Below are positions 621-3,664 of a stretch of 13,709 bases of DNA, one piece after another. Source of the stretch: a virus. Position numbers and translations under genes: made by a program. A model generated the notes under the pieces. The model had not been told where the DNA came from, searched no databases, and worked only from the letters and a program-made list of their open reading frames with translations. The stretch lies in UHGV virus genome UHGV-0265340; one strand, 5' to 3'. Each line of letters begins with the position of its first letter. Within the stretch, counting starts at the first letter, position 1.

Positions 621-1313
621 TCAGAATTCAAATTGTCTTGCCCGCAGGCTTTTCAGCATTGGCGTGGCCCGCTGGATAACGGAACTTGACATGTCGAGAC
701 GTGTTACCTCCCTTAGTAGCGCGTCTCTGTTCTTCGTCACCATGTAGATAGTCTCAAACGCAATGTCATACAGCTTGTTCGTGTATGAGGAGTTCAGCTC
801 TTTCATTATGGGGTACAGCTGCTTGCTAAGGTCCTGGGCTTTTTCCATCCAGAGTTGCATGTAACAAAGGAGGATGATTTCCTCGGCTGTGAATTGTGGC
901 TGAATCTGCGGCTGCTGTTCGGTTGGTGCTGTTTTTCCCTGGCTGAAATAGCAGTCTTCCAGTTTTTCGAACACTTCCCACGCCTGATCGGTTTCTAGCA
1001 TTTTGGCGTGACGGGCTGCGCCTCGTTCTGTCCAGAGGATGAGGGAGCGGGCTTTCGGGGAAATTTGTAACCCTCTTAAAGATGGTTGCAAATTTTGTGA
1101 GTAGTTTAAAGCTACCCGCAAATTTTTCAGGGCATCGCCAGCCACTTTGAAAAAATGCTTTCCTTCAATAAAGCGCTCAGCATTTCTGGCGTAGTTATTT
1201 TGAATGTTCTTAACTTCAGCACCGTACAACTGCGCCAAAAGTTCGGTGGTAATAACAGGAATCTGGTTATGGGTGATCGGGGAGAGAGTTTCAACAGAGA
1301 TTTGAGTTGTCAT
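621..1313 (-). CDS. Roi/antirepressor-like phage DNA-binding protein (Bro-N/ORF6N-type N-terminus)
   Basis: 230-aa ORF with ATG at 1313 and SD-like GAGGG upstream; N-terminal segment (NYARNAERFIEGKHFFKV) resembles ORF6N/antirepressor N-domains; sits just upstream of ninB where lambdoid phages carry roi/ant-like genes. Family call is from recollection only. Confidence 0.7.
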   Translation of the reverse strand: MTTQISVETLSPITHNQIPVITTELLAQLYGAEVKNIQNNYARNAERFIEGKHFFKVAGDALKNLRVALNYSQNLQPSLRGLQISPKARSLILWTERGAARHAKMLETDQAWEVFEKLEDCYFSQGKTAPTEQQPQIQPQFTAEEIILLCYMQLWMEKAQDLSKQLYPIMKELNSSYTNKLYDIAFETIYMVTKNRDALLREVTRLDMSSSVIQRATPMLKSLRARQFEF

Positions 1314-1473
1314 AATGACGCCCTCGAGTGGTTTCTTAATAACTCACCACCGACGACGCCAATCGTCTGGTGGTGAACTGTGCAGGGTTGGCGTAACCGG
1401 GAAACCGACCGGCGCGGATCTCTCCGCCCCCACACAGCCCACCATAATTCAGATGTGCGCGTGCATACGACAA

Positions 1474-1496
1474 TAAAAAACACGCTCGCGGCGTGT
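1474..1496 (-). terminator. Intrinsic terminator on minus strand (tR2-like position)
   Basis: Minus strand reads ACACGC-CGCGA-GCGTGT followed by TTTTTT (plus-strand A-run 1475-1480, stem 1480-1485 / 1491-1496); lies between the cargo island and the antirepressor/ninB genes. Confidence 0.5.
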
Positions 1497-1594
1497 ATCT
1501 GTCGCGGTCTCTATCCAGGACGCCAATCCCGACGCCAGATTTTGCTGGCGTGCGGTGAATATAATCCCGGATACCTATTTTTGTCAAACAACCG

Positions 1595-1650: not shown

Positions 1651-1929
1651 ATGATAAAAAGCTGGAAACACAAAGGACTTCAACGTTTCTTTGAAACAGG
1701 AAATGCATCAGGCATAAATCCCAATCACGTTAAACGCCTGAGAACGCGCCTTCAGGTAATAGATCAAGCTGAAATCATTGATGATATTAACCTTGCCGGG
1801 TACAGGCTGCACCAGTTGCAGGGGGACAGATCCGATACATGGTCTGTCACCGTCTCCGGTAACTGGAGAATCACATTCGAGTTTCGGAACGGCGATGCTT
1901 ATATTCTTAACTACGAGGATTACCACTAA
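1651..1929 (+). CDS. higB: HigB toxin (RelE/ParE-fold mRNA interferase, plasmid-killer family)
   Basis: 92-aa ORF from ATG 1651 with SD AGGAAACA (1640-1647); near-colinear with Rts1/Proteus HigB as recalled (MIKSxKHKGL ... GNWRITFxFxNGDAYILNYEDYH); stop TAA overlaps the next ATG (TAATG 1927-1931); toxin-first order typical of higBA. Confidence 0.9.
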   Translation: MIKSWKHKGLQRFFETGNASGINPNHVKRLRTRLQVIDQAEIIDDINLAGYRLHQLQGDRSDTWSVTVSGNWRITFEFRNGDAYILNYEDYH

Positions 1930-2234
1930 TGGCGATGTTTAACCCCCCTCATCCCGGAGAAATTATTGCTGATATTCTGGAAGATCAGAATATTGGAATC
2001 AGGGAACTGGCAAGAGCGCTTGATGTCGCGCCTTCCACTGTTCAGCGACTGGTTTCAGGTAATGCGACAATATCTCCTGAAATGGCTGTTCGTCTCGCTG
2101 CTGTCCTGGGTGGAACTCCGTCTTCATGGATTCGTCTCCAGACGGCATGGAGCCTCGAAAAAGCGGAAAGAGAAGTTGACGTATCTCATCTCTCAACAAA
2201 ATACCGCCCGGCAGAAATTTCGCCTCATGCTTAA
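1929..2234 (+). CDS. higA: HigA antitoxin (XRE-family HTH)
   Basis: 101-aa ORF translationally coupled to higB; HTH segment IRELARALDVAPSTVQRLVSG; overall similarity to HigA antidote proteins (PHPGEII...LED motif at the N-terminus). Confidence 0.9.
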   Translation: MAMFNPPHPGEIIADILEDQNIGIRELARALDVAPSTVQRLVSGNATISPEMAVRLAAVLGGTPSSWIRLQTAWSLEKAEREVDVSHLSTKYRPAEISPHA

Positions 2235-2281
2235 CCACCGCGCCGTCATTCTGGCGGCGCTTTACCCCAGAGAAATATCAA

Positions 2282-2527
2282 TCACCGGATTACCACATCC
2301 CACTCCGGCTCCTGCCATCTCAAATCCGGTGAATCATTTCTCTCAGGAATAACCATTACGTCCTTTTCCCTTCGCTCCCTTTCTATCGCCATCACAGCCA
2401 ATGCTGTAACCATGATGTATTTTTGTTCGTCGGTTCCTGTTTCATAACGACGCATGAGGGTAAACTCGGGGCGATCAGTAACCTCAATGATTTCGTTAAT
2501 TTCTTTAATTTCGCGAGGAATATCCAT
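2282..2527 (-). CDS. Hypothetical small charged protein (81 aa), divergent from the DUF4145-like gene
   Basis: ATG at 2527 preceded on the minus strand by a strong SD (AAGGAGA, 8-nt spacing); translation is E/R-rich and protein-like; no recognisable family. Its start overlaps the plus-strand start at the CCATGG palindrome (2524-2529), so it may be spurious. Confidence 0.3.
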   Translation of the reverse strand: MDIPREIKEINEIIEVTDRPEFTLMRRYETGTDEQKYIMVTALAVMAIERERREKDVMVIPERNDSPDLRWQEPEWDVVIR

Positions 2528-3200
2528 GGGTTTAGTCTCCTTTGATATCACATGCCCGCACTGTTTAAAAGAGCGAGCTGTTATTGAGGCATTTGCCGAA
2601 AAACAAATTGAAAAAACACCTTTTTTTAACGTCGCTTTTGTATGCAGAAGTTGTCATCGAGGAGGTGTTGCTATTGTTGAAATCCCATCAGACCACTATC
2701 ACGGTCCCATGGCGGAAAGCCAGAAAAAAGACCTCGATATTCTGATTTCAGGAAATAGCCAGTACCGTTTCCGCAAGATCTATCCTGTGGTCAAAAAAAT
2801 TACCGCACCAGAATATACACCCCCGGTTGCAGACCGTACTTTTGTTGAGGCAAAAGAGGATTTACAGAGGAGGCGGTACGACACAGTGGTTATTCTTTGT
2901 CGCAGAGTCCTCGATATCTCCACGAAAAAACTGCTCGGCGATGAAGCAGGAAAAGAATCGCTGTCGCAACGTATTCAGATGATTTACAAAAAAGGCCTGA
3001 TCACTGAACAGATGAAGGAATGGGCTCATATTGTACGAATTGATGCCAATAAAGCAGTTCATACAGATGAAGTTTTCACACCAATTGAGGCAAGCCAGAT
3101 CCTGAGTTTTACCGAAATGTTTTTAGTCTACGCCTTCACTCTGCCTGCAATGGTGGAAGCCAGACGTGAACAAAAAAGATCAGATTCAGCCTCTATATGA
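2526..3200 (+). CDS. Zn-ribbon + DUF4145-like (putative HEPN-type) protein, candidate defence effector
   Basis: 224-aa ORF from ATG 2526 with SD GAGGAA (2515-2520); N-terminal CPHC (C10,C13) ... CRSC (C40,C43) zinc ribbon; C-terminal helical region with R171-x7-H179 (RIDANKAVH) matching the DUF4145 signature as I recall it. Confidence 0.85.
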   Translation: MGLVSFDITCPHCLKERAVIEAFAEKQIEKTPFFNVAFVCRSCHRGGVAIVEIPSDHYHGPMAESQKKDLDILISGNSQYRFRKIYPVVKKITAPEYTPPVADRTFVEAKEDLQRRRYDTVVILCRRVLDISTKKLLGDEAGKESLSQRIQMIYKKGLITEQMKEWAHIVRIDANKAVHTDEVFTPIEASQILSFTEMFLVYAFTLPAMVEARREQKRSDSASI

Positions 3201-3222
3201 ATCACTTTTCTGAACACGTAAG

Positions 3223-3244
3223 CCCCCGTCATTCACGACGGGGA
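3223..3244. other. Perfect 8-bp stem hairpin between convergent genes
   Basis: CCCCCGTC (3223-3230), loop ATTCAC, GACGGGGG (3237-3244); no U-tract on either strand, so at most a weak bidirectional terminator or RNA-stability element; overlaps the stop of the 3233-3664 gene. Confidence 0.4.
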
Positions 3245-3664
3245 GAACATCAATCCCTCTGCACTCCCTCGCCAGAATGCCAGCACACGCTGCATCGTTT
3301 CGCTGTTACGGCACTCGCGACAAATTGTGTTGTAGCGTCTGTCGTAGCGCCGTATTTCCCCATCTGGTAATGCCCGGATAAGGTCTGGATCAACGACAAC
3401 CGGTTTCTTCGACTTTGCCCTTGAGAGTTTTTTGCGGGCATTTTGCCAGTCCTTACGAGCCTGTTCAGACGGGAATACTCCGTAACCGGAATTGTAAACA
3501 TCACCACTGGCGGCCAGCTCCATGCATAAACGACCGACAGACGCATGACTGACACCAATTTCATCCGATAACTGCCGAATCGTGCCTCGTCCGTTAAGGC
3601 GTACGAATTCCACGATCAGCCCCTTAATTTTTTCCCGCTCTTCTGGTGTAAATGCTCTTGTCAT
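3233..3664 (-). CDS. Hypothetical prophage protein with winged-helix-like N-terminus
   Basis: 143-aa ORF from ATG 3664 (GGAG SD region 3675-3678; alternative GTG at 3670); HTH-like TIRQLSDEIGVSHASVGRLCMELAASGDV; part of the minus-strand early operon downstream of the replication genes. Confidence 0.7.
   Translation of the reverse strand: MTRAFTPEEREKIKGLIVEFVRLNGRGTIRQLSDEIGVSHASVGRLCMELAASGDVYNSGYGVFPSEQARKDWQNARKKLSRAKSKKPVVVDPDLIRALPDGEIRRYDRRYNTICRECRNSETMQRVLAFWRGSAEGLMFSPS

Follow-up and report, generated by a model that had tools for sequence, protein, structure and literature searches.

In the 13,709-nucleotide stretch of virus genome UHGV-0265340 analysed here (the window), a small minus-strand open reading frame (ORF) begins on the very start codon of a plus-strand gene that encodes a DUF4145 protein. 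This arrangement raises the question whether the small ORF is a gene at all and, if so, what it does for a phage that carries it head to head with a putative defence gene. The small ORF (2282..2527, minus strand; ATG 2527-2525, TGA 2284-2282) encodes 81 amino acids and is rich in Glu and Arg, as described in the initial annotation (13 Glu and 10 Arg by our count), whereas the plus-strand gene (2526..3200) encodes a protein of 224 aa that consists of a zinc ribbon and a DUF4145/HEPN domain. Reading of the sequence confirmed that both ATGs (plus, 2526-2528; minus, 2527-2525) are located in a single CCATGG hexamer (2524-2529), and the start codons overlap by 2 nt (AT) within its CATG core (2525..2528, both strands). 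The hexamer itself, originally singled out as a palindrome, was ruled out as a meaningful element: it occurs 4 times in the window against 3.8 expected, only this window, among the compared loci, has the CATG core embedded in CCATGG, and what is kept in relatives is CATG alone. Three CATG sites in the window, this junction included, are flanked on each side by an ORF of at least 50 aa; the overlap of the starts is considered non-random because the CATG core and both ORFs recur in related viral loci.

The same gene starts were obtained by other routes. In an E. coli chromosome that is 99.9% identical to the window, PGAP calls both coding sequences (WP_000354247.1 for the small ORF and WP_032144013.1 for the plus-strand gene) with the identical 2-nt overlap. 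The ORF list also contains longer start options, with the minus ORF beginning at GTG 2551 and the plus ORF at ATG 2454; alignments of homologues of the pair begin at CATG. The longer DUF4145 start at ATG 2454 was rejected given that an in-frame upstream ATG exists in just 4 of the 31 unique loci; in 16 of the 31, stop codons occur in this frame 1-13 codons upstream of the start. The gap between higA, which ends at 2234, and the DUF4145 gene measures 291 bp, in agreement with the approximately 290 bp given previously, and contains no known ncRNA detectable with Rfam, the Rfam matches lying elsewhere, at 1366-1564. The genes higB (1651-1929, plus strand; Pfam HigB-like_toxin) and higA (1929-2234, plus strand; Pfam HTH_3) represent a neighbouring antisense insertion (1651..2234) outside the pair; they are absent from the homologous loci elsewhere, where ninB or other genes directly follow the small ORF.

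Comparative data identify the minus-strand ORF as a real, conserved protein-coding phage gene, and decide in this direction between the two possibilities originally considered, a gene or an SD (Shine-Dalgarno) sequence occurring by coincidence inside a promoter region. The analysis of conservation and dN/dS that had been proposed for this ORF was performed, yielding a pN/pS of 0.37 in the ORF frame, which is open in about 30 unique diverged homologues. Four control frames gave values of 1.0-1.4, and the antisense frame with the same wobble positions as the ORF gave 0.50. Variable columns are distributed over the three codon positions as 28/26/45. The invariant R20 is encoded by all six Arg codons across the homologues, the likewise invariant L25 by six codons and P21 by four, and four codons each also occur at A43 and G46; at codons 22-23, 30-31 and 35-37, synonymous sites are unusually invariant. 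Over its full length, the small ORF matches the profile of PHROG 8371, a phage family without an assigned function (residues 1-81 against 1-81 of 81, E 1.4e-55), the sole family recognised, with no match among Pfam, NCBIfam, PADLOC and PDB sequence profiles. Among 1.84 billion representatives searched exhaustively with HMMER, only 40 matched, all of them small proteins except for two repeat-like false positives, and no link to a larger family was revealed.

The protein comprises a conserved core of three helices (residues 1-55; motif DRPEFTLM.RYE..(D/E)QK...A.IG.LIE.DR) and a variable tail (residues 56-81) that is predicted to be disordered and is basic in most members of the family, but acidic in the window type. 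The AF2 (AlphaFold) model of the three-helix core is confident, with pLDDT >93 at residues 1-50. A fold search with this model produced no informative match; in particular, DNA-binding folds such as HTH or RHH did not rise above noise.

The plus-strand gene has the architecture of RAZR (PD-T7-4), the ring-activated zinc-finger RNase (Zhang et al., Nature 2026, PMC13017515; Vassallo et al. 2022). This RNase is described as an abortive-infection (Abi) protein that is non-toxic alone and is activated by rings of the phage portal or of Erf-like recombinases (PMC13017515). Both proteins are of approximately 210-225 aa, are carried on mobile elements, and combine an N-terminal Cys4 zinc ribbon with a C-terminal DUF4145 domain, a divergent HEPN fold. 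In the RAZR-like protein of the window, the ribbon (CPHC...CRSC), with C10, C13, C40 and C43 invariant in 35 homologues, is modelled by AF2 as a beta-strand domain and weakly matches the Rpb9 zinc ribbon in a profile comparison, and the C-terminal half was assigned to DUF4145, with the HEPN fold. The alignment of 35 sequences of this family contains 37 invariant columns, and R171-x7-H179 is invariant, with the same spacing as the catalytic R146 and H154 of RAZR. Variation within the protein is greatest in the zinc-finger and linker region, as seen in a divergent allele from one locus (L122) and as reported for RAZR. However, sequence similarity is marginal, the PADLOC model of PD-T7-4 (PDLC04109) giving a weak partial match (E 0.0022, 15.5 bits), and RNase activity and ring activation are predictions for this clade. 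Because neither the sequence search nor the fold search of PDB with the RAZR-like protein retrieved RAZR, the assignment rests on architecture, fold and motif; given the weak PD-T7-4 match, RAZR-like behaviour of this protein is an extrapolation.

Since the start codons overlap, the ribosome-binding site, the 5' UTR and the promoter of each gene must sit inside the other gene. The SD of the small ORF (AAGGAGA, 2542-2536, minus strand) precedes the minus ATG by 8 nt and falls within codons 4-6 of the RAZR-like gene; the SD of the RAZR-like gene (GAGGAA, 2515-2520, plus strand) precedes the plus ATG by 5 nt and falls within small-ORF codons 3-5. Thus, the good SDs reported for both strands in the initial annotation are indeed present in the window, but the minus-strand one is only moderately conserved in the family, being absent in about 4 of 30 loci. 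Over the 30 unique loci, the anti-SD pairing of the small ORF averages -4.6 kcal/mol, compared to -2.4 kcal/mol for synonymous recodings of the partner codons; the corresponding values for the RAZR-like gene, in all 30 unique loci, are -5.7 and -4.0 kcal/mol. Leu4 of the RAZR-like gene is encoded by CTC or CTT in 24 of the 25 Leu codons and never by CTG, and in the 12 of 31 loci with Ser as residue 5 of the small ORF, this Ser is invariably encoded by TCC. Judged by these comparisons, both SDs are maintained against synonymous drift, on both strands.

A search for a consensus sigma-70 promoter on either strand of positions 2150-3350 found none, and a relaxed scan of the 30 homologous upstream regions detected no positionally conserved promoter. 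The sequence TAAACT (2461..2466, plus strand), antisense of small-ORF codons 22-23, is a speculative candidate for the -10 element of the RAZR-like gene. A TTGATC sequence at -103 recurs in four loci only. Minus-strand hairpins inside DUF4145, examined as potential terminators, did not exceed the expectation from shuffled sequences and were not conserved.

The 2-nt overlap is kept in 56 of the 61 viral loci in a census centred on DUF4145 and in 49 of the 52 in a census centred on the small ORF, which ties the small ORF evolutionarily to the DUF4145 gene, as the proposal of a partner would have it. These loci extend down to approximately 30-50% protein identity, and the overlap is also found in bacterial genomes, those of Enterobacter, Symbiopectobacterium, Alcaligenes, Proteus (in three phage backgrounds) and Klebsiella. 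This is a genuine head-to-head overlapping pair, with both frames under protein-level selection and the overlap preserved from E. coli to Alcaligenes. The pair was observed in at least five phage contexts, with positions after the replication genes and before ninB, in the late region in Klebsiella between the lysis genes and the terminase, and in a separate context in Alcaligenes. The best explanation is that the small ORF moves together with the RAZR-like gene, as a mobile two-gene cassette carried by temperate phages.

In six loci (L069, L070, L086, L087, L089 and L105), an intact DUF4145 gene lies beside a decayed small ORF, and more distant DUF4145 clades are without the small ORF altogether, so the small partner is dispensable in some settings. 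The L122 allele of the RAZR-like gene differs by 29% while the small ORF next to it is unchanged, and therefore, the pair does not tightly co-vary. Where DUF4145 has been replaced, the small ORF gained a new GTG start with an SD and is intact at 85 aa; this orphan form is widespread in E. coli, including copies in Stx-type prophages. Its preservation is as expected for a counter-defence gene that is useful alone.

The orientation of the pair follows a rule, in that the small gene invariably points the same way as the lytic operon around it, and the RNase gene points the opposite way. Among the flanking ORFs of at least 100 aa, 197 are co-oriented with the small ORF compared to 35 with DUF4145. 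In the window, the early-right pR genes (cro, cII, O-like, P-like, DUF1627 and DUF977) are upstream of the small ORF, and ORF6N and ninB are downstream, all on the minus strand, which also carries the N gene; in many loci, the stop codon of the small ORF abuts or overlaps the next gene of the operon. Expression of the small ORF by read-through from pR, as surmised in the initial annotation, is plausible because it shares the orientation of the pR operon. The prophage encodes Bet, RecE and Gam; no portal was seen in the stretch examined, although one is expected to be encoded by this prophage, as by a tailed phage.

This organization points to, without proving, a functional pair of genes that are expressed alternately, one in lytic growth and the other in lysogeny. 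We propose, with a probability of roughly 40%, that in this two-gene cassette, lytic read-through silences the RNase gene by antisense and at the same time makes a small counter-factor against the RAZR-like RNase. The RAZR-like gene, directed against the phage operon, would presumably have a promoter of its own, from which it is expressed in the lysogen to provide abortive-infection defence, and the small gene would presumably be transcribed and translated in lytic growth, here from the N-antiterminated pR operon. The mutual embedding of the genes makes any small-ORF transcript antisense to the 5' end of the defence mRNA, and a read-through transcript of the operon would be antisense to this entire mRNA. 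Lytic transcription would shut the defence gene down, both by transcriptional interference and through an RNA duplex, and would at the same time yield the small three-helix protein. This protein might then counteract the RAZR-like RNase, in a self-immunity or anti-defence role, such that the ring-forming proteins of the phage itself (portal, recombinase) would not trigger abortion of its own lytic cycle. In a more far-reaching version, which we put forward only tentatively, the small protein would be the first dedicated inhibitor of RAZR-type ring-activated HEPN RNases ('anti-RAZR'), and the shared-start architecture a hard-wired toggle that makes defence in lysogeny and counter-defence in lytic growth mutually exclusive via obligatory antisense transcription.

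The notion of an antitoxin-like partner, as first suggested for the small ORF, fits the locus poorly in its classical form. Unlike the co-transcribed genes of a type II toxin-antitoxin operon, the two genes are divergent in every locus; a type II toxin is not maintainable without its antitoxin, whereas DUF4145 is intact in the six loci with a decayed small ORF; RAZR is non-toxic alone; and the small ORF has neither a recognisable DNA-binding domain (HTH, RHH, AbrB) nor a known antitoxin fold.

Alternatively, the small protein could regulate the RAZR-like gene, as a repressor or translational regulator acting at the promoter or 5' UTR inside its own coding sequence, rather than inhibit the RNase. 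Such a regulator would be consistent with the tight linkage to DUF4145, whose promoter and 5' UTR must sit inside the small ORF, and with the basic C-terminal tails of most family members; the invariant synonymous sites are compatible with an embedded operator or promoter, and a divergent defence gene pair with face-to-face promoters is described for Ecl18kI (PMC2760811). We nevertheless regard this explanation as unlikely, considering that no DNA-binding fold (HTH, RHH or another) stood out from noise in the fold search, that the window-type tail is acidic, and that the orphan small ORF persists intact without an adjacent DUF4145 gene to regulate. A regulator of this kind would resemble the controller proteins and face-to-face promoter circuits of some restriction-modification systems.

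Less likely still, the small gene is an ordinary phage early gene that is unrelated to the RNase and linked to it only because the promoter, 5' UTR and SD of DUF4145 are physically embedded in it and inseparable without damage. A mere carrier of a promoter would be expected to lose its reading frame, but the small ORF is intact and constrained at the protein level in regions as different as the Klebsiella late region and the Alcaligenes phage. It is true that either gene can exist without the other, that the small ORF does not co-vary with the 29%-diverged DUF4145 allele, and that its stop codon, abutting or overlapping the next gene in many loci, is typical of a normal operon member. However, homologues of the small ORF are away from DUF4145 in only 3 of 52 cases, none outside the single E. 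coli orphan lineage, and the size of this tiny family (40 representatives in 1.84 billion) matches one DUF4145 clade.

The strong co-occurrence and co-transfer of the two genes, and the multi-gene composition of many defence systems, would also be compatible with the small protein being a second defence component, such as a sensor, an adaptor or a chaperone, that is required alongside the RNase in the lysogen. This appears improbable: co-acting parts are normally co-oriented in one operon, whereas these two genes are divergent in every case, their 5' ends being antisense to each other, and the small gene is invariably aligned with the lytic operon; furthermore, RAZR works as a single gene (PMC13017515), and DUF4145 is intact where the small ORF is decayed.

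That the minus ORF is no gene is highly improbable and already contradicted by the comparative data, whether it is taken as a fortuitous ORF with an SD in the promoter or 5' UTR region of DUF4145 or as the shadow of an N-terminal extension from ATG 2454. In favour of this view, CCATGG is at chance frequency, two other CATG sites in the window are flanked by ORFs of at least 50 aa on both strands, and pN/pS is also lowered (0.50) in the wobble-sharing antisense frame. Against it, the ORF frame has the lowest pN/pS and is uninterrupted in about 30 diverged loci; residues are invariant although every synonymous codon for them occurs; stops break the frame upstream of DUF4145 in most loci, with an ATG in 4 of 31; a new start codon and SD were gained when the original start was lost; and the AF2 fold is confident.

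The proposed combination of antisense silencing and counter-defence has partial parallels in other phages. In phage lambda, ren is a small gene of the pR operon that directly follows the replication genes and precedes ninB, the same map position as that of the small ORF, and protects the phage from an Abi system (rexAB) expressed by the lambda prophage. In that case, rexAB is located elsewhere in the genome, without an overlap of start codons, and we know of no sequence relationship between ren and the small ORF. Switches based on face-to-face (convergent) promoters are found in coliphages 186 (pR/pL) and P2 (Pe/Pc), and excludons and the antisense pairs of type I toxin-antitoxin systems are similar.

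A comparable logic, that of a prophage defence with cognate self-immunity, has been described for BstA-aba (Owen et al. 2021, PMC8585504), but aba is a DNA element rather than a protein, no genes overlap head to head in that system, and its proteins bear no relationship to those of the cassette. By contrast, HepS of the Gifsy-1 prophage, another HEPN Abi system, evades self-targeting by means of a non-triggering tail-tip variant, without a partner gene or inhibitor (Sargen et al., Nature 2026, PMC13043305), which counts against the small protein being an inhibitor. The face-to-face promoters of Ecl18kI-type restriction-modification systems drive divergent genes with 5'-overlapping transcripts and mutual interference, resulting in two alternating states (PMC2760811). 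In such face-to-face systems, the untranslated leaders alone overlap, whereas here the coding regions meet, with two bases common to both start codons, and each of the RNAs is an mRNA. The locus also differs from RAZR, for which the available part of the report mentions no partner gene (PMC13017515), by the conserved small gene placed head to head over the start.

Divergent coding overlaps are the rarest class of gene overlap, with 331 cases compared to 12,737 codirectional ones in 58 genomes (PMC2174442). The pair described here is a well-supported, conserved case of this rarest bacterial arrangement, with shared start codons and each ribosome-binding site in the first codons of the other gene, and, whatever the function, provides a natural model in which two mRNAs are coupled by antisense of necessity. 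A 'hypothetical protein' beside a defence gene is, accordingly, not to be written off as an annotation artefact. RAZR has been described as a single-gene system, which raises the question how a carrier prophage spares its own portal and recombinase rings; the conserved small gene on the start codon of the RAZR-like gene, always aligned with the lytic operon, is an obvious candidate for the missing self-immunity or counter-defence factor. If this is the case, the orphan copies in Stx-type prophages would be free-standing anti-defence genes.

The DUF4145 gene (2526-3200, plus strand; 224 aa) and a small ORF on the minus strand (ATG at 2527-2525 to TGA at 2284-2282; 81 codons, 13 of them Glu and 10 Arg) are arranged head to head, and their start codons (ATG at 2526-2528 for the DUF4145 gene) overlap by the two nucleotides AT. 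The initial annotation had correctly placed these divergent ATGs in one CCATGG hexamer (2524-2529), with Shine-Dalgarno (SD)-like sequences on both strands: GAGGAA (2515-2520, plus strand), 5 nt 5' of the plus-strand ATG, and AAGGAGA (2542-2536, minus strand), 8 nt 5' of the minus-strand ATG. Its E/R-rich 81-aa ORF likewise fills the space between higA (end 2234) and the DUF4145 gene, which measures 291 bp. The palindrome to which it drew attention is a chance-level feature, with four occurrences in the window against 3.8 expected, and among related loci the bases flanking CATG vary, CATG alone being kept. Because the hexamer is at chance level and ORFs of at least 50 aa also occur on both strands at two other CATG sites in the window, the window alone was not decisive, and the question was taken to related loci. 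A GC-rich hairpin (GCGCCG-N8-GGCGGCGC, then TTTA) lies directly 3' of higA, at 2240-2262.

The pattern of substitution shows that the minus ORF encodes a protein. When its conservation and dN/dS were examined, as had been proposed, the first 53 codons aligned without gaps across 12 diverged loci, with pN/pS of 0.37 for the frame of the ORF, 1.0-1.4 for four controls and 0.50 for the antisense frame that has the same wobble positions; variable columns numbered 28, 26 and 45 at the three codon positions. This protein-level constraint speaks against the suggestion that the minus-strand SD is a coincidence within the plus-strand promoter region. Purely nucleotide-level constraint, from a promoter or RNA structure, is excluded by the many synonymous codons at invariant residues: among 31 unique sequences, six are in use at R20 (all Arg codons) and six at L25, and four each at P21, A43 and G46. 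Conservation of an N-terminal DUF4145 extension from ATG 2454 was rejected, since no more than 4 of 31 unique loci have the upstream ATG and 16 of the 31 have stops 1-13 codons from the annotated start. That in-frame ATG, in a second CATG (2454-2456; 248-aa ORF), is the antisense of the Met25 codon of the small ORF, and the seemingly conserved 'MxVNSG' extension, rejected as a start, is an antisense shadow of the small-ORF DRPEFTLM motif.

The NCBI pipeline annotates both coding sequences with the exact 2-nt overlap in an E. coli chromosome that is 99.9% identical. End to end, the small ORF aligns with PHROG 8371 (E 1.4e-55), and it matches no family in Pfam, NCBIfam, PADLOC or PDB. Close relatives are confined to E. 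coli and Shigella, and homologues with 30-50% identity occur in IMG/VR contigs and genomes. The family is small, with 63 clusters in a set of 5.8 billion and 40 representatives in one of 1.84 billion proteins, and its members are all annotated as hypothetical; named members come from Enterobacterales (Escherichia, Yersinia, Serratia, Klebsiella, Enterobacter, Proteus, Morganella, Photorhabdus, Arsenophonus and others), Alcaligenes and Paraburkholderia. An AlphaFold2 model from a 35-sequence alignment contains three helices (residues 3-16, 20-30 and 33-57), with pLDDT above 93 up to residue 50, followed by a tail predicted to be disordered; the predicted fold is uninformative. The tail past residue 55 varies from clade to clade, and six homologous loci (L026-L028, L063-L065) carry a window-type variant with a frameshifted 93-aa C-terminus. 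The three-helix core appears to be the sole constrained part of the protein.

The 224-aa partner has CxxC...CxxC cysteines and an R171-x7-H179 motif, all invariant, together with a DUF4145 domain recognised by Pfam, the same zinc ribbon plus DUF4145/HEPN architecture as in RAZR (ring-activated zinc-finger RNase; PD-T7-4), whose catalytic residues are R146 and H154. RAZR is reported to be an RNase that is non-toxic alone, becomes active by polymerising around ~170-Å rings of phage portal proteins or an Erf-like recombinase and causes abortive infection; no mention of a partner gene was found in the sections consulted (PMC13017515). The PADLOC PD-T7-4 model matches the window protein weakly (E 0.0022), and PDB searches with the partner did not retrieve RAZR, so we name it RAZR-like rather than RAZR.

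Judged by their joint distribution, the two genes behave as a cassette with fixed polarity. A census seeded with DUF4145 found a small-ORF homologue starting at the common CATG in 56 of 61 viral loci; in three of the 56 the small ORF is incomplete, cut short twice by stops and once by the end of the contig. Of the five exceptions, four retain a decayed small-ORF remnant whose ATG has become ATC. In a second census, for which the small ORF was the seed, the DUF4145 gene stood in exactly the same register at 49 of 52 loci. Independent gene finders call the 2-nt overlap in Alcaligenes, three Proteus phage backgrounds and Klebsiella, and genomes of Enterobacter and Symbiopectobacterium have it too. 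Among bacterial gene overlaps, divergent coding ones form the rarest class (331 versus 12,737 codirectional overlaps in 58 genomes), which has been ascribed to the need for upstream regulatory signals (PMC2174442).

In many lambdoid backgrounds with differing replication modules, the cassette follows the replication genes and precedes ninB; Klebsiella prophages carry it among their late genes, in the accessory region that separates lysis genes from terminase, and in Alcaligenes its neighbourhood is an unrelated one. At two of the Klebsiella loci (L114, 1786-2070; L117, 1777-2070), a gene with an Acb2/Tad1-hairpin (anti-CBASS/Thoeris) domain lies ~1.3 kb from the cassette. In every context, the xis/int loci described below included, the small ORF runs along the phage operon and the DUF4145 gene opposite to it; flanking ORFs of at least 100 aa run with the small ORF in 197 cases and with DUF4145 in 35. 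The window itself is a lambdoid prophage, with an annotated N antiterminator gene (Pfam) and an early-right (pR) operon on the minus strand, against which the higBA pair and the DUF4145 gene are inserted. Upstream of the locus are a cro-like gene, cII, O-like and DnaC/P-like replication genes, DUF1627 and DUF977, and downstream are an ORF6N/P22-antirepressor-like gene, ninB, ninE, rusA, ninH and lysis genes. The earlier proposal of expression by pR read-through is thus plausible, the small ORF being co-directional with the operon. At 1366-1564 (minus strand), Rfam gathering-level matches to isrK (1475-1551), C4 antisense RNA (1366-1449) and a1/b1 targets (1512-1564) lie directly upstream of the ORF6N/P22_AR_C antirepressor-like gene (621-1313, minus strand), and together these resemble the P1 immI or Gifsy isrK-anrP-type antirepressor control module.

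The two genes are not always linked. The small ORF is missing from more distant DUF4145 clades: one of 212-aa proteins, next to the small terminase subunit, and that of Burkholderia phages. In an E. coli/Stx-phage lineage, DUF4145 is lost, a co-directional 166-aa ORF is in its place and the small ORF is kept. In these orphan loci (L018-L025, L118-L121; corresponding to 2282-2523 of the window), a form common in E. coli assemblies, homology to the window ends right at the start codon, and the 85-aa small ORF has a new GTG start with a GAGG SD; one copy (L025) has a premature stop. Conversely, at four loci (L086, 664-2835; L087, L089, L105), the small ORF is a decayed remnant (ATG to ATC, early stop) and the RAZR-like gene adjoins xis/int at the prophage end, recalling PD-T7-4 homologues, which, as an earlier screen notes, often overlap an integrase gene. 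At an E. coli locus (L122, 4001-4600; corresponding to 2526-3125 of the window), identity is 98-100% in the small ORF and in the flanks on either side, and the RAZR-like coding region is 29% diverged (71% protein identity), the divergence beginning exactly at the start codon, a pattern suggestive of a replaced allele or of diversifying selection acting on its sensor part.

Because the start codons overlap, each gene must contain the SD, 5' UTR and promoter of the other, and the two mRNAs are necessarily antisense at their 5' ends; a read-through transcript of the operon that includes the small ORF is antisense to the RAZR-like mRNA over its whole length. Codons 3-6 of each gene contain the SD of the other, and both SDs appear to be maintained through codon choice. 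Across 30 unique junctions, predicted anti-SD pairing is -5.7 versus -4.0 kcal/mol in synonymous recodings for the DUF4145 gene and -4.6 versus -2.4 kcal/mol for the small ORF; CTG never encodes Leu4 of the DUF4145 gene, 24 of its 25 codons being CTC or CTT, and Ser at small-ORF residue 5 (12 of 31 loci) is always TCC. Phylogeny is left uncorrected in these tests, but the loci are close to saturation in synonymous divergence (pS 0.6-0.8). Small-ORF codons 22-23, 30-31 and 35-37 (2416-2466) have unusually invariant synonymous sites (F23 TTT, 24/24; T31 ACA, 18/18; D35 GAT, 15/15; Q36 CAA, 27/27), with 4-6 codons in use at neighbouring invariant residues; D35-Q36 form a GATC Dam site in the 15 loci with Asp at residue 35, and a -10-like TAAACT occupies 2461-2466. 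These sites may mark the place where the RAZR-like gene has its promoter or operator; a search for consensus sigma-70 promoters on both strands of 2150-3350 found none, and none recurred at a conserved position in relatives. Two terminator-like minus-strand hairpins inside the DUF4145 gene (2931-2971), neither above shuffle expectation nor conserved, could keep non-antiterminated transcription from reaching the small ORF.

To the weaker claim, of a real small gene with a functional link to its RAZR-like neighbour, we give a probability of roughly 0.75-0.9. In the full model, our preferred explanation, the RAZR-like gene would be expressed in the lysogen as a defence; on induction, N-antiterminated pR transcription (in Klebsiella, late transcription) would interfere with it and yield the small protein, which would counteract the RNase and in this way keep ring-forming proteins of the phage itself from triggering abortion. 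The logic has precedents in lambda ren versus rex, ren being at the same map position, in face-to-face promoter switches and in BstA-aba self-immunity (PMC8585504). The failure to find a promoter, the uninformative fold and the occasional solitary occurrence of each gene count against the full model, as does HepS, with which a prophage avoids self-targeting without any inhibitor (PMC13043305), and we consider the model tentative, at somewhat below even odds.

We found no description of the head-to-head pair in the searchable literature. On comparative grounds, it is a conserved pair of a predicted RAZR-like abortive-infection RNase gene and a small gene with start-codon bases in common, which gives a RAZR-like defence gene a previously unnoticed partner and architecture, with the small gene aligned with the lytic operon.
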